From IMG/VR virus record IMGVR_UViG_3300044797_000113, positions 1 to 62,517 of that record: 62,517 bases of DNA; one strand, written 5' to 3'. Position numbers and translations under genes: made by a program. Each line of letters starts with the position of its first letter. Within the stretch, counting starts at the first letter, position 1. The notes below the pieces were generated by a model. The model ran no database searches. It worked only from the letters and a program-made list of their open reading frames with translations, and was not told where the DNA came from. The stretch comes from a virus (taxonomy: Duplodnaviria > Caudoviricetes). Shown in pieces: positions 30,926-57,456 of this stretch.

Positions 30926-30929
30926 CTCC

Positions 30930-33856: not shown

Positions 33857-33882
33857 GCCACTTTCAGAAAACAAACTAACCT

Positions 33883-36465: not shown

Positions 36466-36478
36466 GGAACATCGAACC

Positions 36479-36901
36479 ATGGATACTGAAAACGAATACG
36501 ATAAATACTTCCCCACGCATGTGGATTTGGGGACCCAGCAGCCCGATTACGGTTCGCCCACGGTCGAATCTCCTCTGAAGTCTGCCAAGAAGAAAACCGT
36601 CTACCCGACGCTATACATTTCCGATGCCCCGGATGAATTGGCGAAGCTCCCAAAGACGGGTTGCGCACTGATCGAGTTTGACCGGCGCAGCATCAAGATT
36701 GGGAAGTCGACCGATGCCGACGGCAAGGAAACCCAGACCGTCACGGTGGAACTCGACATCAAGCGCATCTGCCTGCCAGAAGGCGAGTCCGGCGACCTGG
36801 CCTCGGACTTCGCGAAATTCGCCGCGAAGGCTGGTCGCAAGGATGCTCCGGCTGGTAACGCAGAACCCGAGGACGAACCCGAGGAGAAAGAGGAGTCCTG
36901 A
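36479..36901 (+). CDS. Acidic hypothetical protein
   Basis: Clean ORF within the operon. Confidence 0.65.
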   Translation: MDTENEYDKYFPTHVDLGTQQPDYGSPTVESPLKSAKKKTVYPTLYISDAPDELAKLPKTGCALIEFDRRSIKIGKSTDADGKETQTVTVELDIKRICLPEGESGDLASDFAKFAAKAGRKDAPAGNAEPEDEPEEKEES

Positions 36902-36904
36902 CGC

Positions 36905-37927: not shown

Positions 37928-37929
37928 CC

Positions 37930-40002: not shown

Positions 40003-40715
40003 GCCAAACCGTTCCAATCGTTCTTGTTTGGAGTCCCGTAGGAACCGGGGTGTCGTACACGGACATCAACTCTTTGGGAGGAATTATCGCCGCTCAGTTG
40101 GCGGCGAATATCGAGGCCAACGTGACGTTCTGTTGGGTGGGACCGTCCACTCCTTCCTCGTTTGAAACCAACCTGATTTTCAACACCTCGGAGGGCGTAT
40201 GGTTGTATTGGGATTCCGCTGGCAGTGGTCGGTATATCCCTGTCACTCAGTTCAATGTCGGCGACATCAAGTGGACTTTCAACGCAGGGGACGCACCGAC
40301 CCAGGGATGGATCGTTTGCGACGGTCGACTGATCACGGCGATTCCGAATCTGTCTCAGTATCAGGTTGCGGCGCTGGAAACGCTGTTCGGTACAGGAGGA
40401 TCCCTGCCAACGGTTTCTCCAGTTCAATCGCTCGCCGGGCTGCCGCCGACGCAGTCGTTTGCTTCAATCAAGAACCCTTCGATACTGCCGTCTACGGGTA
40501 CGTTTTCCGGGCTCACGATTAACAATCCCCCGGCGCAGGCCGACGTGCAGGCTGTGGCAACCAACTCGGAGACCCTGGACGTTTCCGTACAGGGCCTGCA
40601 GCAGGCGTTGGCCCAGGTGATTCAACAGTCGGAAAACATGCTGGACTCCCTGCAGAACTCGGGGTCGACGACAGCGCCGACGATGTATGCTCAGGTTTTC
40701 TGCGGATTCCCGTGA
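39999..40715 (+). CDS. Tail collar-domain / needle-like protein
   Basis: GDIKW...PTQGWIVCDG tail-collar motif; C-terminal coiled coil. Confidence 0.6.
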   Translation: MSQTVPIVLVWSPVGTGVSYTDINSLGGIIAAQLAANIEANVTFCWVGPSTPSSFETNLIFNTSEGVWLYWDSAGSGRYIPVTQFNVGDIKWTFNAGDAPTQGWIVCDGRLITAIPNLSQYQVAALETLFGTGGSLPTVSPVQSLAGLPPTQSFASIKNPSILPSTGTFSGLTINNPPAQADVQAVATNSETLDVSVQGLQQALAQVIQQSENMLDSLQNSGSTTAPTMYAQVFCGFP

Positions 40716-41575
40716 CAATGATACACGTCCCGGAAATTGCCGGCCTACCCGACCTGGACTCCATCGAGTCCAGAATGCTTCGTCATCCAGCCGCCGACAT
40801 AGGCGGCAAGGTACTCTGTCAACTATCGCATCATTTTGGACCCCATGTGTACGTCAGAAAATTGAATCGTCCTGCGGACTGCTATATCCTCGGTCACGCC
40901 CACAAGACGGAGCATTTGAATGTCCTGATCTCCGGAAGGCTATCGGTCATCATGGATGGAAAACTCAGGGTGATCGAGGCTGGGACAGTGTTCCTTTCAG
41001 AAGCCGGGGTTCGAAAGCTGACCTACGCGCATGTGGAATCGACTCTTATTACGATTCACCCGACCGATGAAACCGACATCGACAAGCTGGAAGATGAACT
41101 TGTGGTGAAGTCCGGGGAGTTTCTTAGGTCCGAAGCCGGTTTGGACTTCAAACGGATGCAGGCCGAGTCTGATCGCCAGGACTACCTGGCGTTCGTCGAG
41201 GAAACCTGCATGAATCATTCTGACATTCGGGCCATCATGGAGGACGAGTCGGACATGGTGCCGCTCGCAGCGGGATCGGTTAGGTGCGGAGTGTTTCCGT
41301 CGAGCATTCACGGGCGGGGCGTGTTCGCCATGGACGACATTGGGATCGGCGAGGTTGTGGCTCCAGCTAGGATCCTAGATAAAAGAACCCCTGTAGGCCG
41401 TTACACCAATCATTCGGCATCCCCCAACGCTGAAATGTTTCCATTGGAGGACGGGGGCATAAACTTGGTTGCCATGAGGCCAATATCGAGTGGCGAAGAG
41501 GTGACGGTTAACTATCGACAAGCGAGGTCAGCAAACATTTCCGCAACTCGTAATCTGATGGAGGCAGGCACATGA
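40712..41575 (+). CDS. Cupin-like domain + SET-domain methyltransferase fusion
   Basis: HHFG..VYVR...GHAHKTEH (cupin); SSIHGRGVFA, RYTNHS..PNA and GEEVTVNY (SET). Confidence 0.85.
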   Translation: MTMIHVPEIAGLPDLDSIESRMLRHPAADIGGKVLCQLSHHFGPHVYVRKLNRPADCYILGHAHKTEHLNVLISGRLSVIMDGKLRVIEAGTVFLSEAGVRKLTYAHVESTLITIHPTDETDIDKLEDELVVKSGEFLRSEAGLDFKRMQAESDRQDYLAFVEETCMNHSDIRAIMEDESDMVPLAAGSVRCGVFPSSIHGRGVFAMDDIGIGEVVAPARILDKRTPVGRYTNHSASPNAEMFPLEDGGINLVAMRPISSGEEVTVNYRQARSANISATRNLMEAGT

Positions 41576-42343: not shown

Positions 42344-43645
42344 ATGGCGATCAATACTGGCAGTTTGGCGAGCGCCGCCCCGGAGCAGGTCTATGCGAAG
42401 GCTCCGGACTTTCCGTCGAACCTCGGAAAGCTGGACGTTGGTGCGATTTATGATGCGGTTAAGGCGGGGGCGGCTGTACCGCAGGACATGGTTTCCGCTG
42501 CCCGATCGGGCGCTATCGCGAATGCCTTGGCCAAGCCACAGACGCAAGAAGCGCAGGCACAAGCTCAGGCAGGGACGGCGGGGGCTGAACTGCAGTCGAC
42601 TCGGGCAAACTTCCTTGCCGGACTGAATCCGTACGCTCGGGAGAATGTTCTGGCCGGCAGGGTGCCGGGATCCAAGGTAACAAAGACCACTTACGATCCG
42701 GGCACTCAATCTATTCTTTCGACCGAGACCACCGAGGTTCCCGGGGCGACTCGAGGGTCTGCGCCTCAGCCGTTCGAGACCAGCACGAACAGCACTTTCT
42801 CTCCCCGCCAGATTGAGACTTTCCGCGAGCACACGGACACGAACGGAAACATCGTGACGAACACCGGGACATGGCGCGTGCTTGACGCCACGAAGCCCGC
42901 GTTTTCGTTCAACGAGAAGACCGGGGAAATTACGCCGATTCTCGGGCCGGACGGAAATCCGGTGAACGCAACCCTGGTCGGTTCGGCTGGCACGGCTGTC
43001 CGTGGTACGTTCCCGGGGTCAGGGGTTGGCGGAGACGCTGCGCATATTGCGAATCTGCAAGAGGCGATCACGGAGCATCCGGACCTTGCTCCGACTCTTC
43101 AGCCGCTCATTGACCAGATCAAGGCAGGGATTACCGGTCAGAACGCAAAGCTGGGCGCACAGACCGATGCGCTGAAAGGAACGAACGCCAAGCCTGGAAC
43201 GCCCGAATGGGATCAGGCCAAGATCGACGATTTGACGGCGGAGATAGGTCGGGCGACGCTGGCCGGAAACACGGCCTTGGCGGCGCAGCTCACCGGAACC
43301 GTTAAGGCGTATCAGGACATTCAAAAGGCCAGGACGGAGGGCCTTACCACAAAGCTGTCCGGGAAGGTCGGCGGAGGGTCAGACCTATCCAACTACGTCC
43401 CACCGGCAAATCCGGGAGGGCAGCCCGGGGTGACTCCGGTCGCACCGGCCGCGAAGCCCGCTGGCCCGACCTTGGCACCGACGGACAAGGCGGCGTACGA
43501 CGCCCTTCCGCCCGGTTCCGCCTACTACGTCTCGGGCAATCCGAACGTGTTCTTCAAGGGGAACGCAACTCCGCCTCCTGCCGCTGCTGCCGCTGCTCCG
43601 GCCAATCCGACGCCAGACCAATCCGGAGGGCCGCAGGGCCAGTAA
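42344..43645 (+). CDS. Probable internal virion (ejection) protein
   Basis: Middle gene of the small-medium-large ejection triad. Confidence 0.6.
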   Translation: MAINTGSLASAAPEQVYAKAPDFPSNLGKLDVGAIYDAVKAGAAVPQDMVSAARSGAIANALAKPQTQEAQAQAQAGTAGAELQSTRANFLAGLNPYARENVLAGRVPGSKVTKTTYDPGTQSILSTETTEVPGATRGSAPQPFETSTNSTFSPRQIETFREHTDTNGNIVTNTGTWRVLDATKPAFSFNEKTGEITPILGPDGNPVNATLVGSAGTAVRGTFPGSGVGGDAAHIANLQEAITEHPDLAPTLQPLIDQIKAGITGQNAKLGAQTDALKGTNAKPGTPEWDQAKIDDLTAEIGRATLAGNTALAAQLTGTVKAYQDIQKARTEGLTTKLSGKVGGGSDLSNYVPPANPGGQPGVTPVAPAAKPAGPTLAPTDKAAYDALPPGSAYYVSGNPNVFFKGNATPPPAAAAAAPANPTPDQSGGPQGQ

Positions 43646-43648
43646 GAT

Positions 43649-46600
43649 ATGGCCGCAGCCCCGGCAGTCGCCCCGGAGATCCCTGGCGCGCAAGCCGGTA
43701 GCTTGCCGACAGCGACGGTCGTCGCCCCGGAGGTGACGGATAACGTGTCCCCATTCGGGGATCATGCAGCCCCGTTGGCTGCGCCGGCGGTTTCTCCGTT
43801 TGGGGATAAGGCGGTCGCGCAAGGTTCGGTCCAATCGCCGTTTGGAGACACCGCGACGGATGTCCAGATTCCAACGCTGCGCGCGATGACGTGGCGCGAG
43901 AACCTTCAGGACCGACTCCATGATTTGTGGGTGAAGGCGAATACAGGGCCGTTCGATCTTCGGCAGTCTCATAGCGACATGGTAGACATTGCGTCCCAGC
44001 TCGGGAACGTGCAGCGGGAGCTTATTAATGGGGCGCTGTCTCCGGTGAGCACGGCTATGCTGGCGACTACCGGAGGGCTTGGTCAGGCTGCAAAAGAGGG
44101 TTCCGCGGTCGCACAAGTTGCAGCGCCTCTGGCGAATAAGGCAATTTTGTCAGCGGCTACCATACCCGCGGTTCTAAGGCTGCAGACAGCTCTTGAGGGA
44201 CTGAAGGATAACACGAAGTCGGCTGGTCAAAGAGCCGCAGCTATCATCGAGCCGATGATTCCTATTATCCTTGCCGGTCTTCAGGGTGGATTCGGGGAAG
44301 CGACGCGGACTGCGGGAGCCGAACCTGTCGACGTTGCTGGCTTGAAGAACGTCACTCATTCAGTGGCGGAGACGCCGGCAATTGCCGAGGCTCCTTCCGT
44401 CTCGCCGTTTGGCGATCGTGCCGCAGAACCAGCGCCCGGTCCGGCTGCGCCGTCTGCTCCCGTCTCAGAAGCAATCGTCCCGCAGGCTCCCGGTGGCGCC
44501 GTCGAGCAACCGATCGAGGGAGGCGTCGTGAAGCCTGGTGGCGGAGGATATCCGGGCACGCCAGAACCGATTCCGCATGAAGCGCCGCCTGTAACGGTCG
44601 CGCCTCCGGTGGGGTCACCGTTTGGTGATAAGGCGGCGGAGATTCAGCCGGTTGGGCAGGCGGGCGCGGTGCCGGTCGTGGCGCAGCCTCCGCCGGGTTC
44701 AACGTCCGCGCCTCCATCTCTGCCGTTTGATGAAGTCAAAAAGCAGTACATTGACGCCTTTGCGCAATCGAACAAGTACACGCCTGATCAGGTTGGCGGC
44801 AAGGACGCGATTGACAAGATGGCGGCACTTGCTGACGCCTACCCCGACTTCATTGAACATATCGACAACGGGACGGAACCGCCGGTTCTTCCCGGCGGCG
44901 GCATTGTAGGCCCAGAAGTCATTGAGCAACCGACTGCCGAACCGCGCTCTCCGCCGGGTCCGCGCTGGACTTTGGATCCCGGGGCGATCCCTGGAGAGCC
45001 GTCGTACTTTCTGGATGTCCCCGGGGGCGGTGCTTTGGACGAAGCGAAGGCCGCAATAACCGAGCGGGAGGTTCCCGGTAAGGGGGTTCTGTTTGATGCG
45101 ACGACGGCCGGCGGAGAATCAATTGGAACGTTCTCTACGCTGGGTCAGGTCGCCAAGGCTGCGGAGGCTTCTGTTGGACACGGATTGGATGCTGAGAACC
45201 ATCCGCTGAATGTTCTTCCAAACGGGGAATGGATGGATCTACCAGCAATCGGAGGTGCGGCCGTTAGGGTACGAAGATCGAACAATAAGATTTGGGTTGA
45301 AGCGTCAAAACCACAAGGGGTTTTCGAGAGAAGGGGAATTGCATATATTCATTTTGAAAAGGATGGGACAATGACTCCTGGGATTGGGGGGGATCCAGAG
45401 CTGCAGGAAACGGCGCGAATGGCGCTTCAAGATCTTGTAGACAAAACCAGCCCGAAGGGAAATCCAATCAATGAAGGCGTGGGGGCTGCGTTAGGCTCAG
45501 GGGAACCAGAAACTCACAGCCCGCTGCCCCCCGAAGCCCCGACCGAATCCGAGGCTGCCAACGCTCCGCTTGCCGAACCAACTCCCCCCGAACCGGAGGC
45601 ACCTGGGGAGTCCGCAAAGTCCGTCCAGCAACTTCGTCAGGAGGGTTCCGCGATAACTCCGCGCGAGGCAGTCCGAACGGTTTCCCGCATTTCGGCCATC
45701 GACAAGGAAGTCGACAAGCTCCTGAACGAAAGGTCGAATCTGGCTGGCAACGACAAGCGGACGTGGGCGCGCCGGAGCGACCTGACGGACCAGGCGAACG
45801 CTCTTCTTGAAGAGCGCCTTGAGCATCAGATTCGACTTGGAGACAAGGATGCGGAGGCCGCGTTGCAGAGGTGGCACATGCGATCGGAGTCCGGGGCAAA
45901 CATGCCGTCGGCCGATGCCATTATTCTGAAGTTCCTTCAGAAGAACAAACTGCCGTCGGCCAAAGCACTCGAAATGCGGGCGGAGCGCACGGGAGGCAAG
46001 TGGTCCGGAATGTCTGGCGAACTCCGGCAGCTGGACGCTCCGAAGAAGTTCTTCATGAAGGACAAGGATGCGTTGGCTGGGGGCCTCAGCAACACCAGCC
46101 TTGAGCGTTGGAATATGAGGTTGGCGGACGAGTTGTTGGGCAACCTGGGGCCTAACCCGGACGTGGATCCGGAGACCGGGACATTGGCGGCCGGAGAAGA
46201 TGCCGGTATACAACTTGTCGGACGGGCCCTTGCGGCACAGAACTCCGGCGCTTTAGACAGGCGTCTGGGCGAGACGGCGCCGCAGTTGCCGCTCAAGGAA
46301 ACGCCGCTCTTGTCAAAGGCCCGAGAACTGCGCCGGCAGGCCGGATTTATCTACGTTCCCAATTTTGGGACTGGGCGTGTTTCGTATGCGGCACGTAGGG
46401 CGATCGGAGAACTGAACGCAGAACGCCAGAAGATCGTGAATTACTGGAAGGCAGGCGACGTCCGGCAGGCCATGGCTATGACGCGGGATGTGGCGGAAAA
46501 CAAATCCAAATTATATGCAAGGCAGAGTTCAAATGACTTCCGCGGAGACCTGGAGCGAACCTACGGAAAGGATAAGGACCTTGCTTTGGATGCGTTGACC

Positions 46601-49303
46601 GCGGTCGTAGAGGCGGGCCAGGGTCCCCTTACCGGCCAGCAACAGATCGGTGCCCCGAAGGATGTTTGGGGCAAGGAATCGCTAAAGGCTATGAAGGCCG
46701 ACCTGGAAGCGTCTACAAAGGCCGATCCTTATTGGAAGAATCGCGATCTAGCCGCTATCGACTTTGCCATAAAGAATTACGAGTATCTGAGTAGTCTCGC
46801 CGACGACTACAACGCCGTACAGGATGCAGAACACTCCACGGAGAACGCTTCTGGTGTCGAGTCGCCTACTTTTCAGCGGTACGTGTTTCATCCCCAGGAC
46901 GTAGACCAGGAAATCTCGGCCCCGTCACTCATGGGCGGCGGTACGGGGAACGCGCAGTTCCGACAGATGCGCGTCTACCCGAATTATGCAGCCTCGATTG
47001 CCGCAGGGGTAAATCCCTACACGTTGAACGCCGCGGACCTCATGGAGACGCGCCTTCGCATCGGCGCGAACATGGTCAACAACCGCGCGTGGCTGGAGTC
47101 CCTGCATGACATTGTCGACCCTACCAACGGCCAGCCTGTGGCGGCGCCGATGGAGGTCGTTAAGCGTCCGGATGGCTCCACGTACACCAAGGCTCCGGAC
47201 GGGTATCACGCGGAGACCATGGGCGGCCAGCAAGTCGCGGTACAGAACGGATACGCCGGGATTTTCAGCGCGCTCTCGGATCCAAGCCGGTTTGCCGACG
47301 GGACCTGGGGACGGCTGATTCAGCGCGGAAACGCGACGGCTAAGTCCATGGCGCTGCTGTTCGACACGTTCCACCTTGGCCGCGTGGCTTTTTGGTCCGG
47401 GATCATCCGTTCTCCGCTTGCCGGCCTGACTGGGTCGTCCCTCACCGGCCCGTCGTTTGCCCGGGGTGTGGCGATGCTTGACCTGTCCCCGCAGGAGTTT
47501 CAAAGGCGGATCGCGTCAGGTGATATACCGGCACGCTTCCAGAAACAACTGATTCAGGACAAGTACCACTTGGACAAGGTGATCGACCACGGCCTGAACG
47601 TGGGGCGGATCGCGGACTCGCTGCACCAGGAATGGGTGCGCGCGGTTCCCGGTATCGGACATTTCAACAAGTGGGTGTTTGAGGACGTGCAGCGCGGTGC
47701 TATGGCGGAGATCGCCATGATCGAGTTCAAGCGTCAGGCGAAGGCGAACCCGGAGTGGAGCGAGGATCAAGTCGCGGCGAACGTTGCACGCGAAATCAAC
47801 ACCCGATTTGGAAGTCTTGGCCGCCAGGGGTGGATCAAGTCCCAAACCGGCCAGGACATCGCCCGACTGCTCGCGTTGGCGCCTCAGTGGAACGAGGGTC
47901 TTGTGAAGTCCGAATTCCAAGGCGCATGGAACACGGCGAGTGCCGCGGCAAAGAAAGTCCTTGGTAGACAGGCCGCGGTCGGGCTTTTGGGTCGGTCTGT
48001 GATGGCGGCCGGAATCGCGCTCTTTGCCGCCAACCAACTCATCAACCTTTACACCCGGGGGCATCCCACTTGGAAGAATCCGGAGAAGACCTTTGGTGCA
48101 AAAATCTCGGCATGGATACCGGACTACATCGGGCGCGCCATGGGGCATGAGGGCCCAGGCTTCTTTCTGAATCCAATGAGCCTTCCGGCTGAGATTTCCC
48201 ACGTTGCACTGACGGCATACGAACGAACGCATGACTGGCCGGAAGCGGCGAACGACCTTCTGCGGGGACGCGCGTCGATATTTATGCGGGCAATCCTGAC
48301 GGCGATCACGGGGAAGAATAACCTTGGGCGCCCGACTCGGCCGGGGCACAGGATTGCTCCGATTCTGGCGTCCCTCAGTCCGGCTCCGTTGGCAAGCCCT
48401 GCGCTGGTCAACGCAGTCCGCGGTATTGCCGGCGGAGGCAACCGGGAAGCGTTCCCGGGCCAGTTTCAGAAACAGCTCATGCAGTCGTTTGGAATCCGGA
48501 CCGATCAGGCACCGTCGAAGGAGCAACGCATCTACGGGCTGGCGGAGGAGTTCAACCGGACCAAGGGGATCCAGCCCTCTGCCGAGTTCTACCAGGGCGA
48601 CTACCAGCCGATTGTCCACGCGCTTGAGACCGGGAATAATGCCGACGCGAAAGACGCAATGACTGCGCTGCTGCACACTAAGACGCCGGATCAGGTGTTC
48701 GATCATTTGACCCGCTGGCCGTTGTTCCCGTTTACCGGGCAGGCTCGGCGCGAAGCCGGATTTGTCCAGACCTTGAACCCGGAGGAGAAGCAGGCATACG
48801 ACCAGGCTGTTGAGAATCGCGAAGCCGTGGCGCATCAGGCGATCGACCTTCTGCATGAGGTGAATCCAAACGCGCCGACGATCTCCGGGCCTGAGTACGA
48901 CCGCCTTATGGGTGTCATGAAAGCCGACAAGGTTGCGTCGTTGCAGTCTTCCGAGGACCGGGAGGCGGCAAAGGGCGAGCTCCAACGAATCCTGGCGTTG
49001 CCTCCTGCCGAACGCGGGCCCGAACTGGAAAAACTGAAACAGGACCCGGTTTTGGACGAGGAGGTAAATCGGCAGTTCAAGGAGCAGACCCGCGGGCTGA
49101 CCGTCGTCGAGAAGCATATCCAGTCCCTTCCTGTGGCGACCGGCGCCCGGGCGGAGTACATTTTCAACGAGGCAACGAAGATTCCGGCGGGCCCGGAGCG
49201 CGCGGCGTACATTCAAAACCTCAAGGAAAAGAACATCTGGAACGACCGCATCGAGGGCCAAATCGGAGAGCTCATGCAGGGTCGACCGGCGGTGGGTCGC
49301 TGA
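43649..49303 (+). CDS. Very large internal virion / polyvalent protein (1884 aa)
   Basis: Size, position, Pro/Ala-rich linkers and helical C-terminal region. Confidence 0.7.
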   Translation: MAAAPAVAPEIPGAQAGSLPTATVVAPEVTDNVSPFGDHAAPLAAPAVSPFGDKAVAQGSVQSPFGDTATDVQIPTLRAMTWRENLQDRLHDLWVKANTGPFDLRQSHSDMVDIASQLGNVQRELINGALSPVSTAMLATTGGLGQAAKEGSAVAQVAAPLANKAILSAATIPAVLRLQTALEGLKDNTKSAGQRAAAIIEPMIPIILAGLQGGFGEATRTAGAEPVDVAGLKNVTHSVAETPAIAEAPSVSPFGDRAAEPAPGPAAPSAPVSEAIVPQAPGGAVEQPIEGGVVKPGGGGYPGTPEPIPHEAPPVTVAPPVGSPFGDKAAEIQPVGQAGAVPVVAQPPPGSTSAPPSLPFDEVKKQYIDAFAQSNKYTPDQVGGKDAIDKMAALADAYPDFIEHIDNGTEPPVLPGGGIVGPEVIEQPTAEPRSPPGPRWTLDPGAIPGEPSYFLDVPGGGALDEAKAAITEREVPGKGVLFDATTAGGESIGTFSTLGQVAKAAEASVGHGLDAENHPLNVLPNGEWMDLPAIGGAAVRVRRSNNKIWVEASKPQGVFERRGIAYIHFEKDGTMTPGIGGDPELQETARMALQDLVDKTSPKGNPINEGVGAALGSGEPETHSPLPPEAPTESEAANAPLAEPTPPEPEAPGESAKSVQQLRQEGSAITPREAVRTVSRISAIDKEVDKLLNERSNLAGNDKRTWARRSDLTDQANALLEERLEHQIRLGDKDAEAALQRWHMRSESGANMPSADAIILKFLQKNKLPSAKALEMRAERTGGKWSGMSGELRQLDAPKKFFMKDKDALAGGLSNTSLERWNMRLADELLGNLGPNPDVDPETGTLAAGEDAGIQLVGRALAAQNSGALDRRLGETAPQLPLKETPLLSKARELRRQAGFIYVPNFGTGRVSYAARRAIGELNAERQKIVNYWKAGDVRQAMAMTRDVAENKSKLYARQSSNDFRGDLERTYGKDKDLALDALTAVVEAGQGPLTGQQQIGAPKDVWGKESLKAMKADLEASTKADPYWKNRDLAAIDFAIKNYEYLSSLADDYNAVQDAEHSTENASGVESPTFQRYVFHPQDVDQEISAPSLMGGGTGNAQFRQMRVYPNYAASIAAGVNPYTLNAADLMETRLRIGANMVNNRAWLESLHDIVDPTNGQPVAAPMEVVKRPDGSTYTKAPDGYHAETMGGQQVAVQNGYAGIFSALSDPSRFADGTWGRLIQRGNATAKSMALLFDTFHLGRVAFWSGIIRSPLAGLTGSSLTGPSFARGVAMLDLSPQEFQRRIASGDIPARFQKQLIQDKYHLDKVIDHGLNVGRIADSLHQEWVRAVPGIGHFNKWVFEDVQRGAMAEIAMIEFKRQAKANPEWSEDQVAANVAREINTRFGSLGRQGWIKSQTGQDIARLLALAPQWNEGLVKSEFQGAWNTASAAAKKVLGRQAAVGLLGRSVMAAGIALFAANQLINLYTRGHPTWKNPEKTFGAKISAWIPDYIGRAMGHEGPGFFLNPMSLPAEISHVALTAYERTHDWPEAANDLLRGRASIFMRAILTAITGKNNLGRPTRPGHRIAPILASLSPAPLASPALVNAVRGIAGGGNREAFPGQFQKQLMQSFGIRTDQAPSKEQRIYGLAEEFNRTKGIQPSAEFYQGDYQPIVHALETGNNADAKDAMTALLHTKTPDQVFDHLTRWPLFPFTGQARREAGFVQTLNPEEKQAYDQAVENREAVAHQAIDLLHEVNPNAPTISGPEYDRLMGVMKADKVASLQSSEDREAAKGELQRILALPPAERGPELEKLKQDPVLDEEVNRQFKEQTRGLTVVEKHIQSLPVATGARAEYIFNEATKIPAGPERAAYIQNLKEKNIWNDRIEGQIGELMQGRPAVGR

Positions 49304-49370
49304 CATGGACTTGCAATTTAAGAACCAACCCTGTATCGGAAACCTGCTTCTGGCATAACTCACTCTGACC

Positions 49371-49841
49371 ATGGCTTATACCTACATGACCGGGACGATC
49401 AACCCCGGCGACACAGACTTTCAAAAATGGGCCAAGCTGCAAGGTGCCGCGTGGCTCGCGTGTTCAAATGCCGGAATCTCCATAAATACCGTGAGCAATC
49501 CACTACTACTTCCCTTGGCTCCTGGCGCAAACGAATGGCAGAAATTTGCCTCAGTCCAGGCCATGCTGACCAATCTCAGCAGCGGCCTTTCCCCGGCCGC
49601 CTCCGGCGTACAGTCCGGCAACCAGGCGGTCACGACCTCTGCAACCAGTCAAGTGATTGCCTTCGCAACGGGATTCGCTGCGGCTCCGGCTGTGGTCGCT
49701 TCGCTGGTCGCTCCCGGCGGCGGGGCGACAGTCCTCGAAAACGTGACCGGAATTTCCGCGACCGGATTCACGGCCAACTGGGGTTTTGCAATACCATCCG
49801 GGTACTCGCTGTCCTGGATCGCCACGCCAAAGACGCAGTGA
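49371..49841 (+). CDS. Small fibre/adaptor protein with H-lectin-like C-terminal domain
   Basis: IAFATGFAAAPAVVAS...ISATGF...SWIA; internal repeat FQKWA/WQKFA. Confidence 0.6.
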   Translation: MAYTYMTGTINPGDTDFQKWAKLQGAAWLACSNAGISINTVSNPLLLPLAPGANEWQKFASVQAMLTNLSSGLSPAASGVQSGNQAVTTSATSQVIAFATGFAAAPAVVASLVAPGGGATVLENVTGISATGFTANWGFAIPSGYSLSWIATPKTQ

Positions 49842-49851
49842 ATTTCCAACC

Positions 49852-52320
49852 ATGAATAAATTCCTCACAGGTTTGATTTTGAACGTCGCCCTGATCGGCG
49901 GCCCGTATGTCTCCCAGGCTTCCACGACCCCACTGAACAACGCCGTGTTCACGGCGCCTGCGAGCGTCGCTGCGCTCCGGGCCATTCCGGTCACGGCGGG
50001 CATGAACGGCTACCAGATTTCCACGCTTGGATATTGGACTTCCGGAGATGGCGGCGGAAACACGTTCATTTACAATTCCGCAAGCGGTCTGTCGGACAAC
50101 GGAGGCACCGTGATTGTCCCTTCGGCCGGGGGCGGGGCTTGGATTTCCACGAGCACCAACTACGACTGGAAGAGGTTCGGGGCGAATGGCAATTCCTTGG
50201 CGGTGCGCCTCCCGACTACGATCGGTCTTGGGTCGAACGTCCTGACGCTCAACGGTGCTTCGTTCGCGGCAACCGACGTCGGGAAGTCAATCGTGGTCGG
50301 CGGGGCCGGATCCGCCGGGGCTGGACTCTATGGCACGATCACCGGCTACACCTCGTCCAGCCAAGTGACCTTGAGCGTCACCGCTGCCACGGCGGTCACG
50401 GGCACCACGGAAATCAGCATCTATGGCACCGATGACACGACTGCGATCCAGAACGCACTCACCGCGGCGGGCAACGTGCCCTACTTCCAGACGAGCTATC
50501 CTTCCGCGGGGCTGTACTTCATCTCGCGGACCTTGAACCTGCCGCCGGGCGTCAGCATCCACGGCATCGGCGACCAAGCCACCTTTGCCTCGACCCAGTA
50601 CGGGACGCAGCTTGTCGGCTACCTCACGGGCTACGTGATCCAGCAGGCTTACGGTTCCCCGACCGAATCTTATAGCCACATCGACAACCTCTCCATCAAC
50701 GTCAACTGCACACTCGGATGCCTCTACTTCGAGAACGCGAACGAATGGGAGGTCGGCAACTGCACGCTCTACGGCGGCACATCGGTCGCGGACCTGACGA
50801 TTGACGGAAACCCCGGCTGCATCAACCCGCTGATCCAGAACAATATTTTCTTCGGGCACACGACCTACGGCATCCAGATCATTGGGGATAACCACACGAA
50901 CGTGTGCTTCTTCCACAACTACATCACCCCGGTCTGCACGGCGGGTTTGTACATCCATTGCACGCAGGGCGACTTCACATCCTACTCGGACATTTTCGAG
51001 AACAACGCCACAGGCGTGCTCGTGGATGGCGACGTTGCCTCGGCTGGCGGCGTGCCGAAGTTTTACAGCTTCAGCGATTACTTCGAGGGCGAGAGCACCG
51101 CATGTTACTCGGTGAACCCGGACGGGTACACGAACTTGGAGCCCATCGTGACGATCCGAAACGCGCACGAAAGCGGGAACTCGATCACGCCGAACTTCCT
51201 GCTCTACGGCCCCTGCAAGAACCTCGACGTGCAGGACGCTCAAATCACCGGGGAAACGGGCGCCTCGTTCGTCATGGGGACCATGACAGGGGTGACGGAC
51301 CCGGTGAGCCTCAAGGGTATCACGAGCACGGCACCGTACACGAGCAGCCCAATCGTTTCCTCGACGCCCTCCACGGTCAACACGACCGACTACGTTTGGC
51401 GGAGCGGCTACAATGGCTGGGGCGGAACGGGCGGGGTGGGCGGCCAAAGCCTGATCGCAGGATGGGAAGTGGCTCCCACCTATTCCGGCTCGGCCTATGG
51501 GATCTTTGACGAACCTCAATTCACGGCGACAGCCAATTCGCAGCAATTCTACGGTATGGAAACGCTGCCTTCGATTGCGACCGGCACATACTCGTCGCTC
51601 ATCTACCGCGGCGGCTACATCCCCACCCCCACGGTCACGGGCTCGGGCCTCGGGTCCGCCTACCAGATGATCGTAGACAACGGCGGGGCCTTCACGAACT
51701 TGGCGGGTTTGGCGATCAACAGCCAGACGAACGGCCTCACCAACAACACGGACCTCCTGTTTGGGACGCTCACGATTCCGAGCGGCACGTTCGGCCTGTA
51801 CCAAGGGGACAGCTATGCAAATTCGCTCGGGGGCAGCCTCACCCTTCGCGGCAACGGGGCGGGGGCCTTGGTGTCCAGCTCGGCGGGCCTCATTTCGGCG
51901 CAGACGAACGACTACCAAGCCGATCTTACCGGGACCGCCTACACGCTCACGGCCTCCAATGCCGCCATCACGGGGGGGACGACTTCGCCCACGATCACGC
52001 TAGGCGCCGCTGGCACCTACATCATCACGGCTGGAATCAATTGCCTCTACAGTGGGGCAACGTATGCCGCGACCCAGAACGTCACGTTTTCGCTCTACCG
52101 GACGAATAACACGCCGGCAAGCATCTACAACGGAACCTTCATCCTGCGGACGATCACGACCACGAGCGACACCGCCTGCACGCCGACCCTCAAGTACATT
52201 TACACGACCACCAACAGCAATGACGTGGTGACGATCTACGGGCAGCTATCCGCAACCCCGTCGGCCGGCTCGGTTCAGATCCAGAACCCGACCTACATCG
52301 TCGCCCAAAGAATCTACTGA
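49852..52320 (+). CDS. Tailspike-like beta-helix (pectate-lyase-like) protein with signal-peptide-like N-terminus
   Basis: GYWTSGDGGG...DNGGTVI, FGANG, GTDDTTAIQNAL and beta-helix repeats. Confidence 0.8.
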   Translation: MNKFLTGLILNVALIGGPYVSQASTTPLNNAVFTAPASVAALRAIPVTAGMNGYQISTLGYWTSGDGGGNTFIYNSASGLSDNGGTVIVPSAGGGAWISTSTNYDWKRFGANGNSLAVRLPTTIGLGSNVLTLNGASFAATDVGKSIVVGGAGSAGAGLYGTITGYTSSSQVTLSVTAATAVTGTTEISIYGTDDTTAIQNALTAAGNVPYFQTSYPSAGLYFISRTLNLPPGVSIHGIGDQATFASTQYGTQLVGYLTGYVIQQAYGSPTESYSHIDNLSINVNCTLGCLYFENANEWEVGNCTLYGGTSVADLTIDGNPGCINPLIQNNIFFGHTTYGIQIIGDNHTNVCFFHNYITPVCTAGLYIHCTQGDFTSYSDIFENNATGVLVDGDVASAGGVPKFYSFSDYFEGESTACYSVNPDGYTNLEPIVTIRNAHESGNSITPNFLLYGPCKNLDVQDAQITGETGASFVMGTMTGVTDPVSLKGITSTAPYTSSPIVSSTPSTVNTTDYVWRSGYNGWGGTGGVGGQSLIAGWEVAPTYSGSAYGIFDEPQFTATANSQQFYGMETLPSIATGTYSSLIYRGGYIPTPTVTGSGLGSAYQMIVDNGGAFTNLAGLAINSQTNGLTNNTDLLFGTLTIPSGTFGLYQGDSYANSLGGSLTLRGNGAGALVSSSAGLISAQTNDYQADLTGTAYTLTASNAAITGGTTSPTITLGAAGTYIITAGINCLYSGATYAATQNVTFSLYRTNNTPASIYNGTFILRTITTTSDTACTPTLKYIYTTTNSNDVVTIYGQLSATPSAGSVQIQNPTYIVAQRIY

Positions 52321-52336
52321 AAAGGATCCGCCACCT

Positions 52337-54244
52337 ATGAACAAAACGCTCGCACTCATTTTCGCGCTCGCGCTGCCGTGCGCCGCCTTCGGTCAGCAGA
52401 CCGTTGGGACGCTGAACTTCGTGCAGAGCAGCGCGCCGGCAGCGCCGACAAGCGGGGTGACCGGATACGCGAACTCAAGAAATGAGCTGAACTGGGTATT
52501 CCCAACGGGGCCTAACTTCGCCGTGGCACCGCTGTCGTCTGGCGGGATATTGAATCCTTTTTCGGCGCCGATCCAGTTTGGATTCACGGCCCAGTCGGCC
52601 ACGTCGTTTGTGTACGATGATTTTCAGTCGCCGTTATACACGACGGGCACTCTTCTGAACGGCCTTGTTTGTCCAACTGGCCAAACGTGGTCGGTTTCAG
52701 GTGCGGGAGTAGCTACCACCACGATTTCCGGGAATGGATTTGTCACTGCTGAATCCTCAATCAGCAATACGTCTTACAGCTTTTTGAATTACGGGGCGCT
52801 AATACCTGAAATAAAAGTCGGGTTTGTAATGAAGACTCCGGCCGATTTTGTGCCGAGCCAAACGGTAACATTTCTGGTCCTTATAGCCGCTCAGGACACA
52901 AGCATCCAGAAGATGCTGCACTTGCAGATCACCCCAACTACTTGGGCTTTTCAAAAGACCTTGAGCGGCGGCGGCGGTTTGGTCACACTGCTCGCTGGCA
53001 CCCACCAATTACAGCCCGGCGTTCAGTACACATGCGGATACACAATTAACTGGGCGGCTGGAACGGCTACCGTTTATCCGCCAATGGGGCTTCCTCAGAC
53101 CTGTGCGGCGGATCCTGATATTACGACGATTGCCGGGCAGCAAGGCTGTTGGGAATTGACGAACCCTGGAACCTTCGGAGGACACTACAATGCAACCATA
53201 AATTATGCCAGCATGGGGCCAACCCAAGGTTCAAAATCGGTTGACTCTGGATATGCAACTCACACCGCCGACATGGGCCTTGTTCGCGGCAGCGACCTCT
53301 TGGGGCTCCCGGTTTGGCACCGAGTGACGTTTTCAATTCCATCGGGAACTGCGGCGGGATGGTACACGGTAGCCATAGGAGCGTCTGCGGAAGGGGTGAG
53401 GATTCATGGAACCGTGGCGGTTTCAGCAGATGACGGAACGTATTACACGCGCTGGCTTGGATATGTTGACGCCGTGCAAACCGGAACACCGACAATAATC
53501 ACGAATTGGGTGAGTGATAATTCGGGGGCAACTCAACTGAGATTGTCGAATCTCACATCTCCACCGAGTGCGCAACTGGACGTGTATCTTAACGGTCCAG
53601 CATCGACCCCTCCCAAGAACGTAACTGTGGATATTTTTGGTGACTCGATCCCGTATAATCCAGCGATTGGGACAAGCGCTTCGCCTTTGGGCGGAACCGT
53701 GACGACGACGCCTATCACGGGTCAACTGGCCCCGTTAATGGCCGCCAGCAATTTAGCGACGGCCTCCATGCAGTCCGGAGTGGCGCTAGCGGCAAACGCA
53801 AGCAACGGCAACACCGAGCCTGCCATCAAGTGGACAAATATCAATACCAGCAACTCCGTCGGAGCCGCAATCGACGCAATCAGGACCGGCGCAGGATACG
53901 CCCACTCACTTAGGTTTTGGACGGCAATTAACGGGAGCGGCGGCACGCTGACTCAAGCCGGGTACTTTGACACAAGCCAAAACTTTTTCGTGACCGGGAT
54001 CGCGTCGGCGGCCGGTCTTGCTCTAACTGGTGCAACCTTTGCGGGAACTGTCACGCTCTCGTCCGGAGCCGGAACGATTACGTCCGCAGCGATCTCAACC
54101 ACGAGCACCGTGATTTTGACCCAAGTCACGGCAAGCGGGACGGCAGGAACCTATGAACCGCTTGTCAAGGCCGGATCTGGGTCAGCGACCGTCACTGGGT
54201 TGGCCACCGACAACTCAACCTACAACTGGCGCGTCATCCAGTAG
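52337..54244 (+). CDS. Fibre/receptor-binding-like protein with Sec signal peptide
   Basis: MNKTLALIFALALPCAAFG-QQ; Thr/Gly/Ser beta-rich body; C-terminal domain similar to that of 35190..35603. Confidence 0.7.
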   Translation: MNKTLALIFALALPCAAFGQQTVGTLNFVQSSAPAAPTSGVTGYANSRNELNWVFPTGPNFAVAPLSSGGILNPFSAPIQFGFTAQSATSFVYDDFQSPLYTTGTLLNGLVCPTGQTWSVSGAGVATTTISGNGFVTAESSISNTSYSFLNYGALIPEIKVGFVMKTPADFVPSQTVTFLVLIAAQDTSIQKMLHLQITPTTWAFQKTLSGGGGLVTLLAGTHQLQPGVQYTCGYTINWAAGTATVYPPMGLPQTCAADPDITTIAGQQGCWELTNPGTFGGHYNATINYASMGPTQGSKSVDSGYATHTADMGLVRGSDLLGLPVWHRVTFSIPSGTAAGWYTVAIGASAEGVRIHGTVAVSADDGTYYTRWLGYVDAVQTGTPTIITNWVSDNSGATQLRLSNLTSPPSAQLDVYLNGPASTPPKNVTVDIFGDSIPYNPAIGTSASPLGGTVTTTPITGQLAPLMAASNLATASMQSGVALAANASNGNTEPAIKWTNINTSNSVGAAIDAIRTGAGYAHSLRFWTAINGSGGTLTQAGYFDTSQNFFVTGIASAAGLALTGATFAGTVTLSSGAGTITSAAISTTSTVILTQVTASGTAGTYEPLVKAGSGSATVTGLATDNSTYNWRVIQ

Positions 54245-54245
54245 C

Positions 54246-54275
54246 TTGACGCCGCACCCGTTCCCGTTCTATACC
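54246..54275 (+). promoter_or_regulatory. sigma70-like promoter (probably leaderless transcript)
   Basis: TTGACG-18 nt-TATACC, ending 6 nt before the ATG at 54282. Confidence 0.5.
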
Positions 54276-54281
54276 GCCCCC

Positions 54282-54533
54282 ATGACAAAGAGCCGCGCAA
54301 ATTGGCACTCACTGGTCGCCGTCGCCGCCGTCGTGGGGGCCGAACTCGAAGGCTTGAAGGGCGAGACCTACCAGCAGCTTGCCTCGCACACGATCATCTT
54401 CTGGGTGTGCCTCTTTTGCGCGATCATCGTCGGCTACGGCAACTCGGTGATTTCGACCAAGCCGACAGAGCCCGCCGCACCCTCCAATGCGACTCCTGCT
54501 TCCCCTCTCCCTCCTGCTGCTCCTGCTCCTTGA
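54282..54533 (+). CDS. Holin-like membrane protein
   Basis: 83 aa with one or two hydrophobic segments; heads the post-tail cassette. Confidence 0.5.
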   Translation: MTKSRANWHSLVAVAAVVGAELEGLKGETYQQLASHTIIFWVCLFCAIIVGYGNSVISTKPTEPAAPSNATPASPLPPAAPAP

Positions 54534-54629
54534 CGGCTGCATTGCCGTCAGGGAACGCCCCGGCGACCCGTACACGGTGCTCGCTCCGGGCCAGCAGGCT
54601 TGCGGTATCAAAAACACGACCCTTTTCCC

Positions 54630-55067
54630 ATGAAAATCCAAAGCCTGATCCTCCTCCCGGTGCTTCTCATTTTGAGCGCCTGCCAGCTACCCCAGATCGA
54701 AGCCTCCGCCACCTACATTGGAGCCGAAGCCGCGACGGCGGCCCTGCTTCAAAAGCAGCCGCAGGCGCTTTTGCCGCTACAATCCCTTGTCGCGGACTGG
54801 CACAAGTACCAGCTCGGTACGCTGACGACCTCCGATGAGGCCGTGCTCCTTCAGCAGATCACCACGGCGACGAAGGCCAAACTGGACCCAGTTGCCGCTG
54901 CGACCCTCGACGGCGCCGTGCAGCAGATCCTCGCCAATGTGAATACGACCGCACCTACACCGCTCGGGGGTGCAGCCGCCGCAATCATCACCGACCTGAT
55001 GAACGGAGTGGCCCGCGAACTGACGGTTTACGTGCCGCCATCCTCGACCGCCGCGACCTCCCCCTGA
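54630..55067 (+). CDS. Lipoprotein
   Basis: MKIQSLILLPVLLILSA-C lipobox. Confidence 0.75.
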   Translation: MKIQSLILLPVLLILSACQLPQIEASATYIGAEAATAALLQKQPQALLPLQSLVADWHKYQLGTLTTSDEAVLLQQITTATKAKLDPVAAATLDGAVQQILANVNTTAPTPLGGAAAAIITDLMNGVARELTVYVPPSSTAATSP

Positions 55068-55516
55068 TGCTTCAAGTCCTGCTCTTTCGCGGCACCGGGG
55101 CATTCTCCCGCCTGATCGAGTGGCAGACGCGCGGGCCGTACAGCCATGCGGCCCTGCTTCTGCCGGACGGGAGGCAGATCGAGGCATGGTCGGACGGGGT
55201 GGACATCAGGCCGCACTTTGAGGACCACGGGAGCCGCGTGGACCGCTTCACGGTGGCCGCGACCAAACAGCAGGTTGTCAAGGTTGCGAACTTCGCGCGC
55301 GGCGAGGTAGGATGCGCCTATGATTGGTACGCCGATTTCTGCTTCGTAACAAGGATGCGTCCCCCGCGTTCGGACAAGGCGTGGTTTTGCTCGGAGCTGG
55401 TGTATGCCTCCCTTGAGGCCGGCGGCATCAACCTGTTCCGGGGAACAGAAGCCTATGAGGTCAGTCCGTCCATGCTCGCCCGGTCTCCGCTTCTCACAAA
55501 GCAACATATCGCATGA
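55067..55516 (+). CDS. Permuted papain-like amidase (YaeF/YiiX, NlpC/P60 superfamily)
   Basis: YSHAAL, G..YDW and WFCSELV (His precedes Cys). Confidence 0.85.
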   Translation: MLQVLLFRGTGAFSRLIEWQTRGPYSHAALLLPDGRQIEAWSDGVDIRPHFEDHGSRVDRFTVAATKQQVVKVANFARGEVGCAYDWYADFCFVTRMRPPRSDKAWFCSELVYASLEAGGINLFRGTEAYEVSPSMLARSPLLTKQHIA

Positions 55517-55569
55517 CTTGCATTGCACGCCACGAAGTAAGGAAAAGCGGAATCCTCTAAACTCGACCG

Positions 55570-55992
55570 ATGATCGAAGACTGCCTAACTTTCCTGGACA
55601 AGTTCATGCCGACAGCGCGAGGCACAACAGTTTGGCGTTCCGCGATTACCCTGCTCGTAGTAGGGCTGTTTGGCATGGGCGCCCTTGCGTGGAAGCTGCT
55701 TCCGGCGAATGTGGATGCCGCGATCGACAACAACAAGACGATCCTGGCGCACTCGGCGGCGCTCGTTCAGGCTCAAACGGCGGTCGTCGATGCAAAGAAC
55801 GAGGCGCAGGAGGCCGCCAAGAAAGCCGATTCGCTATTGGCTACCCAGCTTCGGATATTCGATGCGTTGAAACAGGGGCATGACGACACCGAGAACGTAC
55901 TGTTGAAGGTGACGGCCACGAATCAGAGCCTCGACGACGTCAAGGAACGCCTGACGAGGATCGAGGCAAAACAGGACCAGGCGTCCCGGTAG
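55570..55992 (+). CDS. TM + coiled-coil protein (inner-spanin/holin-like)
   Basis: One TM helix then heptads ending RLTRIEAK. Confidence 0.55.
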   Translation: MIEDCLTFLDKFMPTARGTTVWRSAITLLVVGLFGMGALAWKLLPANVDAAIDNNKTILAHSAALVQAQTAVVDAKNEAQEAAKKADSLLATQLRIFDALKQGHDDTENVLLKVTATNQSLDDVKERLTRIEAKQDQASR

Positions 55993-56466
55993 TCACTCGC
56001 CCCCGAACGGTGCTTCGTTCTGCGGGTCGGCGACCGTCTCGGCAGGATCGGCAGGATCGGCCAGCGCCAGTTCCTTCTGCAACTCGGCTGGCGTCATCTG
56101 GTCGACGGAAACCGTCTCCGAGGTGTCGAGGCGCACGGTCGTCTTGATGCCGGGTTTGGGGTCGTCGAGGCGAACTTCGCACGTCACGGAACGGTACTCG
56201 AATCCGCTGGTGATGTTGCTGGAAAGCTCGCTGATCTTGGAGGTGACGCGCTCCGATCTGGCCTTGAACTGCGTCTTGACCGTGGCGAACTCGTTCTCGA
56301 TCTGTGCCGCCTCCTGGTGCGCCTCGGCGATCTGGCGTCCCTTCTCGAGCATTTCCTCCTTGGTGAAGAGGACGCGCAGTTGCAGGGAGATTTTCTTGGG
56401 CAGCGTGATGGCGGGCGCAGCGGCTTCGGCCGCGGTGGTGGCTGTGACTGTGGGTTTGGTGGGCAT
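55993..56466 (-). CDS. Conserved phage hypothetical protein
   Basis: Coiled coil followed by GFEYRSVTC...RLDT. Confidence 0.7.
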   Translation of the reverse strand: MPTKPTVTATTAAEAAAPAITLPKKISLQLRVLFTKEEMLEKGRQIAEAHQEAAQIENEFATVKTQFKARSERVTSKISELSSNITSGFEYRSVTCEVRLDDPKPGIKTTVRLDTSETVSVDQMTPAELQKELALADPADPAETVADPQNEAPFGGE

Positions 56467-56469
56467 AAA

Positions 56470-57456
56470 TTAAAATGGCTCGGGTTCGGGTGCTGTGGTG
56501 GACGTCGCGGCCGGAGCCTGAGTGGCCGGCTTCACGGCATCCTCTTTCCACTTCGCGAGTTTGTCCTTCAGCGCGACACGGTCGGACTTCGGCACAGTGT
56601 CCCACCAGGCTTTGAGGGCGTCGAGCCCCTGGCCGGCGGCGTTGGCGCCTTCGGCGGAGAAGTCGCGGTCGGCGGCAGCGGGCTTCCCCTGTGCCCATTC
56701 GGCGATTTTCTGTCCGATGTCCTCACTGAGAGGCTGAGGGTCCGCGAAAATGTCGGTGAACTGGCGGGCGGTCTTGATCATCATTTTCTCGCCCACCTCG
56801 TCGGACACCCATGTAGGAACTCCGCCGGCGTGTGGCATAAGGAGGCAGCAAGCGGTCATCTCGAACACGAGCTCGCTGCTTCCGATTGGCATGAAGCCGA
56901 TGTTTTCAATCTCGGTCTTCCCCTCGCGCTTCATGGGCTTCACCTTCTCCTTGGCGCGGAAGTTCATGATGAGGTTCGCCTTCAACTGAAGGATGCCGTC
57001 GATCATGGCTCGGCGCTCCTGGGATGGTTTGATGAAACTTGCGAGCTTGCATGCCTGGCGCTTCCCCCAGTTGTCGCCGGCCATGCGATCCAGCTCCGCT
57101 TCGGCGTATTCCAAATATCCACCGGCGCCGGAATGTTCATGGGTCATAGAGTCGACGACGATGGTGTTGACTCCCTTGTCGACAAAATGCCGGATGGCTG
57201 CGAGGTAGTCTAGCGACCGGAACGGCGCCTTGAAGTCCATATGCTGGAACTTGAAGTAGTCGGCGTAGTGGAGGGCGCGGCTGGCCTCGGTGTCTATCAC
57301 CCCGATCAGGCCGCCGGAAACACGTTGGATGCCCGTTGCGAGGCGAAGGGCGGACATGGTCTTGCCGCCGCCGGCTGGGCCCATGATTCCTAGAAGCACG
57401 GGCACGCTTTGGCGTGTGGCCAGCTTGTCTTCAAATGTACGCGGTGAGTTTGACAT
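56470..57456 (-). CDS. AAA_24 ATPase (Sak4-like recombination/annealing protein)
   Basis: GPAGGGKTMSALRLA, IDTE, VVDSMTHE and FEMT. Confidence 0.85.
   Translation of the reverse strand: MSNSPRTFEDKLATRQSVPVLLGIMGPAGGGKTMSALRLATGIQRVSGGLIGVIDTEASRALHYADYFKFQHMDFKAPFRSLDYLAAIRHFVDKGVNTIVVDSMTHEHSGAGGYLEYAEAELDRMAGDNWGKRQACKLASFIKPSQERRAMIDGILQLKANLIMNFRAKEKVKPMKREGKTEIENIGFMPIGSSELVFEMTACCLLMPHAGGVPTWVSDEVGEKMMIKTARQFTDIFADPQPLSEDIGQKIAEWAQGKPAAADRDFSAEGANAAGQGLDALKAWWDTVPKSDRVALKDKLAKWKEDAVKPATQAPAATSTTAPEPEPF

Follow-up and report, generated by a model that had tools for sequence, protein, structure and literature searches.

Two neighboring late genes of a tailed-phage genome, IMG/VR virus record IMGVR_UViG_3300044797_000113, encode a tailspike-like and a fiber-like protein that both open with what look like genuine export signals. 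The window is this whole record (62,517 bp). The first gene (49852–52320, + strand) encodes P0001, an 822-residue protein with a predicted tailspike-type, depolymerase-like β-helix, and the second (52337–54244, + strand) encodes P0002, a 635-residue fiber/lectin-like protein. We observed that both carry the full layout of a leader for the Sec machinery and signal peptidase I (SPase I). The accepted view is that the assembly of tailed-phage particles is confined to the cytoplasm. For these two proteins, Sec export with cleavage of the leader is likely, and we tentatively favor a reading of the whole in which the exported, processed proteins act on a host glycan without being part of the particle.

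P0001 opens at ATG 49852 with MNKFLTGLILNVALIGGPYVSQA, followed by STTPL, and P0002 opens at ATG 52337 with MNKTLALIFALALPCAAFG, followed by QQTVG, exactly as the preliminary description of this DNA had quoted them. The predicted leader of P0001 comprises 23 residues (49852–49920, + strand) and would be cut after SQA, a call that draws on our rule set and on the homolog P0010. The leader of P0002, called by the rule set, comprises 19 residues (52337–52393, + strand) and would be cut after AFG; a second cut, after G24, also fits. The n-regions are positive in both proteins (Lys3), with no acidic residue ahead of the h-region. In P0001, the h-region (residues 4–15, mean Kyte–Doolittle value 2.37) is followed by G16, G17, and P18, and the c-region reads GGPYV-S-Q-A ahead of Ser, with S at −3 and A at −1. 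Similarly, the h-region of P0002 (residues 5–18, mean 2.51) leads into the c-region LPCA-A-F-G, with A at −3, G at −1, and Gln at +1. There is no twin-arginine (Tat) motif, as neither residues 1–23 of P0001 nor residues 1–19 of P0002 contain an Arg. The P0001 leader has no lipobox Cys. In the P0002 leader, the residues ahead of Cys15 are A-L-P, at odds with the lipobox consensus; the true lipobox of the genome lies in the product of the gene at 54630.

Could the hydrophobic segments be anchors that are never cleaved? Such anchors would keep the proteins fixed on the outside of the cytoplasmic membrane, for example, for superinfection exclusion or for control of lysis timing. Neither protein has a hydrophobic segment other than the N-terminal one, and the best 19-residue Kyte–Doolittle window of P0002 reaches 1.65, as this idea would have it. 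However, the h-regions are short (12–14 residues), helix breakers and good SPase I sites come right after them, and the best window of P0001 is only 1.29–1.39. Short, weakly hydrophobic h-regions fit cleavable signals better than membrane anchors, and we regard permanent tethering as very unlikely.

The leaders were judged with a strict rule: a net positive charge ahead of the core; a core of ≥10 uncharged residues with a mean Kyte–Doolittle value of ≥2.0; and a cut 3–8 residues past the core, with A, G, S, or C at −1, a small or aliphatic residue at −3, and no Pro from −3 to +1. Five of the 65 open reading frames (ORFs) passed, namely P0001, P0002, the lipoprotein at 54630, the holin-like protein at 54282, and the product of 29975, which is an evident false positive with a Rossmann GxxGxxG N-terminus. 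The background at internal positions was 30 of 13,023 (0.23%). A laxer rule passed 6 of the 65 ORFs, 4 of 237 internal Met residues, and 205 of 13,062 internal positions.

If translation began downstream of the two ATGs, the leader-like stretches would not be translated at all. The in-frame GTG codons that could serve in this way are codon 32 in P0001 and codons 29 and 41 in P0002; the other alternative starts are TTG codons 8 and 10 (within the leader) and ATG codon 51 in P0001 and GTG codon 63 and TTG codon 72 in P0002. However, these GTG codons lack any Shine–Dalgarno sequence, and no ribosome-binding motif precedes any of the alternative starts in either gene. The annotated ATGs lie 10 and 16 nucleotides past the upstream stops (TGA 49839–49841 and TGA 52318–52320, respectively) and, like most genes of this phage, they stand in a ..ACC ATG-like context with no Shine–Dalgarno sequence. 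Furthermore, P0010 aligns to P0001 from residue 1, and the homology of P0001 to its relatives begins by residues 15–37, so that initiation at codon 51 would truncate a conserved domain. The earlier claim that no nearby downstream ATG would skip the signal withstood this scrutiny: no later start leaves the conserved part intact, and P0002 has no further ATG in its first 80 codons. A wrong start is, in our judgment, extremely improbable.

Do such leaders recur in relatives? An exhaustive search with residues 1–230 of P0001 returned 2256 proteins at E ≤ 1e-3. Among the best 149 of these 2256, the strict rule was passed by 26, P0067 adds one by eye, and 122 have no leader. P0010, the closest architectural relative, has a leader that opens with MNK; its hydrophobic core differs from that of P0001, a Pro precedes the cut, position −1 is Ala, and the mature protein starts with the same TPLNN. 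The leader is thus kept in kind and not in sequence, which is the pattern of functional signal peptides. P0013 likewise combines a leader with the domain order of P0001. Homologs were also found in 20 IMG/VR loci, where a leader is present in four (L008, L009, L015, and L019) and absent from 15, the start being unreadable in one. The leader-bearing spikes of the three such loci examined all belong to phage structural modules: the spike adjoins the major head protein and a tail-fiber assembly protein in L008, comes after baseplate and tail-fiber genes in L009, and comes after a DNA-ejection protein and a 963-residue protein in L015. In a genome scan that gave four loci, a hydrophobic leader was clear by eye in L024, possible in L025, and absent from the other two. 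The signal is conserved, then, in part of the family and with a changed sequence. Together with the n-h-c layout, the rule test, and the leaders of other phages described below, this bears out the initial view that these are true Sec signals. In L019, two neighboring genes (333–1259 and 1885–4149) encode proteins with similar leaders, MMRRIGWLAAAALLVGGATA... and MRNRLGWLVAALIFLASPAWS..., each followed by (S/T)T(Y/F)LGGG. Scans of IMG/VR with the giant protein encoded upstream (43649–49303), P0002, and P0013 gave no close relatives with genomic context, and two metagenome scans for relatives found none.

A further alternative is that the proteins stay in the cytoplasm, where the hydrophobic N-termini would be retained, for example, as a buried trimerization or docking helix, and assembly would follow the textbook. 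Several observations point this way or otherwise weigh against the reading that we favor. The leader calls depend on a rule set of our own, with one clear false positive among the 65 ORFs, and most of the best homologs are leaderless. AlphaFold2 (AF2) left residues 1–33 of P0001 without structure. The Cys content shows no sign of oxidative folding: leader-bearing homologs are not enriched in Cys relative to leaderless ones (median densities 1.10% vs. 1.16%, p = 0.74), and in this phage, proteins that lack a leader are no poorer in Cys. On the other hand, two adjacent genes have the complete layout, with proper residues at −3 and −1, against an internal background as low as that given above; the P0010 leader has changed its sequence while keeping its character; and leaders recur on unrelated spike-like proteins of other phages. 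Retention in the cytoplasm is, on balance, unlikely, and export is the best reading of the leaders and of their recurrence.

What, then, does the leader of P0001 precede? The body of the protein is pectate-lyase-like (PF12708, E = 5e-5, 23.6 bits against a cut-off of 27) and matches phrog_32881 (E = 4.6e-20). Ahead of the helix lie two smaller domains. The first is a small N-domain at residues ~34–105 (49951–50166, + strand; phrog_17640 at residues 37–120) with the motif AALRAIP...GY..GDGGG..F...DNGGT. It was modeled by AF2 with predicted local distance difference test (pLDDT) values of 60–92, is tandemly duplicated in P0010 and P0013, and matches an internal region (~225–331) of gp43, an appendage protein of the N4-like Achromobacter phage Axy04. 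The second is an inserted small β-barrel at residues ~113–205 (50188–50466, + strand; phrog_32881 at residues 106–222) with the motif F..xDVGKxIxVxGAG, pLDDT values of 79–97, and VIA Z values of 6–7.5 to small barrels of phage tail and capsid proteins. A barrel of this type is present in 129 of the 149 homologs, and in P0001 it is followed by YGTDDT, where the helix begins. The AF2 model, built from 25 sequences, is confident only for residues 34–240; beyond residue 240 the pLDDT falls below 50, and the model allowed no reading of disulfide or helix geometry.

The top VIA matches of P0001 are all tailspike depolymerases, with Z values that are middling by the tool's own note: CBA120 TSP2 (residues 252–469 aligned, Z 8.9, 27% identity), Fri1 gp49 (204–645, Z 8.9), the phage P1 tailspike (206–586, Z 8.0), Depo32 (201–415, Z 7.8), and WceF (167–336, Z 7.7). 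CBA120 TSP2 (PDB 5w6p/6w4q) and Fri1 gp49 (6c72) have a pectate-lyase-like helix, as P0001 probably does, and residues 33–247 (up to 475) of P0001 align to them at Z 8.8–8.9; the identity to TSP2 is 27–28% over 125–133 residues. The Z value of 8.9 to 6c72 spans residues 33–475 and thus includes the part of the model past residue 240, where the pLDDT is below 50. Foldseek pointed to the same kind of protein, weakly (template modeling score ≤ 0.2). P0001 and P0002 had no sequence matches in the PDB, and NCBIfam gave no match for P0001, P0002, or the upstream neighbor P0003. The protein database lists PF27114.1 for P0001 and P0005, a family that our Pfam profile search did not report.

The solved spikes differ from P0001 at the N-terminus. 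CBA120 TSP2 and Fri1 gp49 start with a particle-binding domain of ~200–250 residues and have no signal peptide, whereas P0001 has only a leader in that place; mature P0001 starts ~13 residues before the module that is placed after residues 165–265 in the solved spikes. No particle-binding domain was found in P0001 by Pfam, PHROGs, or alignment to solved tailspikes. The alignment to the start of the module and the internal position of the Axy04 match indicate that what follows the leader does not serve for binding to head or tail. The preliminary description had placed the leader ahead of a classic tailspike N-domain and a β-helix. The helix is probably of the tailspike type, but the supposed N-domain is not what it was called, as residues 33–247 correspond to the start of the catalytic module. 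As modeled, P0001 would consist of a leader followed almost directly by a tailspike-type depolymerase module, with an enzymatic activity that is presumed from its fold.

Could such proteins serve the phage without ever joining its particle? We propose that translation from ATGs 49852 and 52337 would yield two products, each with a cleavable Sec-type signal peptide, and that, late in infection, the host Sec machinery would move P0001 and P0002, unfolded, across the cytoplasmic membrane. The leaders would be cut (P0001 after SQA23; P0002 after AFG19 or G24), and the proteins would fold and oligomerize outside the cytoplasm. P0001 would provide a β-helix glycan depolymerase module with no recognizable particle-binding domain, and P0002 would be a fiber/lectin-like binder. 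Free of the particle, they would target the envelope glycan of the host itself, working in the lysate as well as from the periplasm or cell surface. Trimming or masking of the capsule, exopolysaccharide (EPS), or O-antigen would help the progeny to escape, leave fewer of them lost on debris, and keep the infected cell from being superinfected.

If the proteins are exported, action in free form is slightly favored because P0001 has no anchor, because leaderless fiber candidates of the collagen-like type exist elsewhere in the genome (at 33883, 35190, and 35785), and because WceF sets an example of an exported enzyme of tailspike-like build that works in this way. WceF of Pantoea stewartii (PDB 6tgf) is an exported trimeric tailspike-like β-helix glycanase that acts on the cell's own exopolysaccharide (PMC7949094). 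Residues 33–247 of P0001 align by VIA to its residues 167–336 with a root-mean-square deviation of 3.4 over 131 residues. WceF is encoded in a bacterial EPS cluster and has a Tat leader, and hence is exported in the folded state, whereas P0001 is phage-encoded and has no twin arginine.

Attachment to particles after lysis is nearly as likely a fate for the exported proteins as free action, and the two roles are not exclusive; both fates that had been named at the outset thus still stand. Taken as a whole, however, the sequence of export followed by docking is rather doubtful. The spikes would fold outside the cytoplasm and join cytoplasm-built particles when lysis mixes the compartments, perhaps via the leaderless P0003 or another tail protein, and they would be true receptor-binding gear. 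The position of the genes speaks for docking and, like the points raised above against export, counts on the other side of the balance from free action: they fill the tail-fiber slot that separates the giant protein from the lysis genes, which is the spike site of short-tailed phages, and they are tightly coupled to P0003. The same is true of the G+C content at third codon positions (GC3), which in P0001 is 0.81, a high value of the kind seen in the portal and capsid genes. We found no second enzyme-bearing spike in the genome, and the leader-bearing spikes of L008, L009, and L015 stand at the end of structural modules. The lack of a long anchor is also not decisive for a particle-free role, as the module starts ≤60 residues from the N-terminus in 40 of 123 leaderless homologs (later in 83 of 123). 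Against docking stands the lack of a recognizable particle-binding domain in P0001, and we found no described case in the literature of exported spikes that dock after lysis.

Two cultured phages bear on the choice. In the Cellulophaga phage phi18:3 (NC_021794, Pachyviridae), three adjacent late proteins, gp085–gp087 (32891–38583; locus L031, 2892–8584), carry Sec-like leaders with Gln at +1 and are encoded just upstream of the endolysin region. According to the record notes, they are annotated as structural or tail proteins "based on experimental MS/MS proteomics" (tandem mass spectrometry), and a leader is present in 3 of these 3 vs. 0 of 8 other proteins of the phage with such annotation that we examined. 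This annotation favors docking and speaks against free action. However, detection by mass spectrometry in particle preparations can reflect co-purifying material, and the phi18:3 data are known from the record notes. The host of phi18:3 belongs to the Bacteroidota, and gp085–gp087 have no sequence similarity to P0001 and no Pfam match.

The second is the Burkholderia phage Bcep781 (NC_004333), whose gp49 bears the GenBank note "possible tail fiber; possible signal peptide domain"; gp48 of Bcep43 belongs with it. Like P0001, Bcep781 gp49 has a leader, MNMKKNKHVLFGVLLTACGLPAFA followed by Q, then a similar small domain and a helix-like body, although the similarity between the two proteins is weak (32% over 106 residues, E = 0.008). 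The gene sits among baseplate genes, which again suits docking. Unlike the phage studied here, which is likely short-tailed, Bcep781 has a contractile tail, and ~110 fiber-like residues separate the gp49 leader from the module. We found no study of gp49 export in the literature. An extracytoplasmic last step of tailed-phage assembly, with spikes that mature in the periplasm and snap on at lysis, might be common to Bcep781-like phages, phi18:3-like phages, and many uncultured ones; we consider this reading rather doubtful.

More distant parallels are known. The Bdellovibrio MAT fibers are phage-tail-fiber-like trimers with signal peptides that function outside the cytoplasm; they are encoded by chromosomal genes of the predator and have a conserved, β-rich domain of ~130 residues after the leader and often an S74 chaperone (PMC10769870). 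P0001 and P0002 also have a predicted leader, but neither gave a Peptidase_S74 match at E ≤ 0.1. Secreted and signal-arrest-release (SAR) endolysins, such as Lys44 of fOg44, are late phage proteins that use the host Sec system via an N-terminal signal (reviewed in PMC6116005). They are lysis enzymes and neither spike-like nor receptor-binding. The export strategy had been called unusual at the outset. This is true insofar as we found no literature on Sec signals of tailed-phage tail fibers or spikes, but the Bcep781 note and the phi18:3 proteins are precedents, so that export signals on phage spike-like proteins are unusual and hardly studied but not unique. What is new here is a tailspike-type, depolymerase-like protein and a fiber-like protein with export signals; the Bcep781 GenBank record had already noted a possible signal of this kind.

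If P0001 and P0002 act in free form, they would stand for a class of exported helpers, made by the phage to act on glycans, that are wrongly annotated as virion spikes. If they dock, they would reveal a post-lysis assembly step that is absent from textbook schemes. Either way, the leaders bear on the prediction, expression, and engineering of receptor-binding proteins, and recombinant spikes of the P0001 type might need periplasmic expression. Given the recurrence of leaders (26 of the 149 best homologs, 4 of 20 viral loci, and two cultured phages), an answer from one cultured system would serve many cases.

P0002 is less readily placed than P0001. A word search of 5.8 billion clusters found only P0002 itself, and the AF2 model of the protein alone was unusable (pLDDT 32.7). 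ESM Atlas features gave leads only (best 0.88), to DUF2793 and Mtd_N clusters, many of them viral. Its GC3 is 0.61 vs. 0.81 in P0001, and this lower value suggests recent acquisition. The C-terminal ~65 residues (54041–54235, + strand) resemble K1-lyase_C (PF24146 at residues 569–633, E = 7.5e-4, 20.3 bits against a cut-off of 27), and the precomputed label in the database is PF24146.3. The preliminary description had likened this end to that of the collagen-like fiber protein encoded at 35190–35603 (+ strand), a leaderless protein that matches Collagen (E = 6.5e-8) and K1-lyase_C (PF24146, E = 4.7e-10). The resemblance is real but weak: both proteins match PF24146, and BLASTP gave 35% identity over 63 residues (E = 0.034).

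P0003, encoded directly upstream of P0001 (49371–49841, + strand), is a leaderless protein of 156 residues with a lectin-like C-terminal domain (phrog_14469, tail fiber, E = 5.9e-4; H_lectin, E = 0.07, below the cut-off). It has three homologs, at 73, 54, and 46% identity, one of which is labeled PF09458 H_lectin in the database, and P0003 could be a short fiber or an adaptor. A complex prediction with three copies each of P0003 and of residues 24–125 of P0001 scored 0.01 and was counted neither way. An alignment scan with P0003 found only the unrelated long-tailed phage L027, and P0003 showed no similarity to the gene that precedes the L008 spike. P0003, P0002, and the 35190 product end alike, in a lectin-like domain of ~65 residues (35400–35600 in the last), with matches that are mostly below the cut-off; of the three, only P0002 has a leader. 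The other two collagen-like proteins, at 33883–35193 and 35785–36465, also lack leaders and have N-termini rich in Cys and Pro, which may form interchain knots.

The record is listed as 100% complete, in the class with direct terminal repeats, and a 127-bp terminal repeat was confirmed at the genome ends. The genome has a G+C content of ~60%, no tRNA genes were found in its 62,517 bp, and few of its proteins match PHROGs or Pfam. A long block on the + strand, from ~17.6 to 56 kb, holds the late genes: a probable portal and capsid region, sugar-modifying genes, three collagen-like fiber proteins, several unassigned tail-region proteins, a giant protein of 1884 residues, and then P0003, P0001, and P0002, directly followed by a probable lysis block (54282, 54630, 55067, and 55570). 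No tail tube, sheath, or tape-measure protein was recognized in the genome, and the phage is likely short-tailed. The giant protein (43649–49303, + strand) has no Pfam or PHROG match; by its size and position, it is a candidate internal or ejection protein, and it would mark the slot that short-tailed phages use for fiber or spike genes. A search for the phage capsid protein gave no match in 401 Acidobacteriota genomes and none in four genomes holding homologs.

The lysis block opens with a small, holin-like membrane protein (54282–54533, + strand) that has hydrophobic segments and no family match, its role being suggested by its position. Next comes a lipoprotein (54630–55067, + strand) with a lipobox-like LSAC, MKIQSLILLPVLLILSAC followed by Q, which indicates that the phage uses host export signals elsewhere in its genome. 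The third gene (55067–55516, + strand) encodes a permuted papain-like enzyme (YaeF/YiiX, C92) and candidate endolysin, with matches to PF05708 (E = 0.0016), phrog_1128 (E = 3.3e-29), and NF008552 (E = 3e-5) that are all under the curated cut-offs. The last (55570–55992, + strand) encodes an N-terminal membrane helix and a coiled coil and may be spanin-like or holin-like (weak GspM-like match, E = 0.0032). The spanin-like pair is suggestive only as a pointer to the host envelope, that is, to a periplasm or a single membrane.

The gaps between the operon genes range from −4 to +20 nucleotides. Most of the late genes (17600–56000) lack a Shine–Dalgarno sequence and start in ..ACC ATG contexts or right after the preceding stop, which hints at a host that relies little on Shine–Dalgarno pairing. 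A scan of 43000–56500 gave no promoters or terminators that exceeded shuffled controls. The sugar-modifying block (22670–31709) is embedded in the late strand, with the portal region on one side and the capsid gene on the other; among its members are a glycosyltransferase-like gene and an epimerase-like one whose product has a Rossmann N-terminus. For 40712–41575, the PHROG families are named short tail fiber or adhesin (E = 2e-50 to 3e-25), while Pfam gives a SET domain (E = 5e-11) and a cupin instead, and the PHROG names may be wrong. Finally, the giant protein contains no Cys and has five SPFGD motifs within its first 330 residues, and the 963-residue protein whose gene precedes that of the leader-bearing L015 spike carries a pair of NPFDQFD motifs close to its N-terminus; the two may represent a shared short docking or ejection motif.

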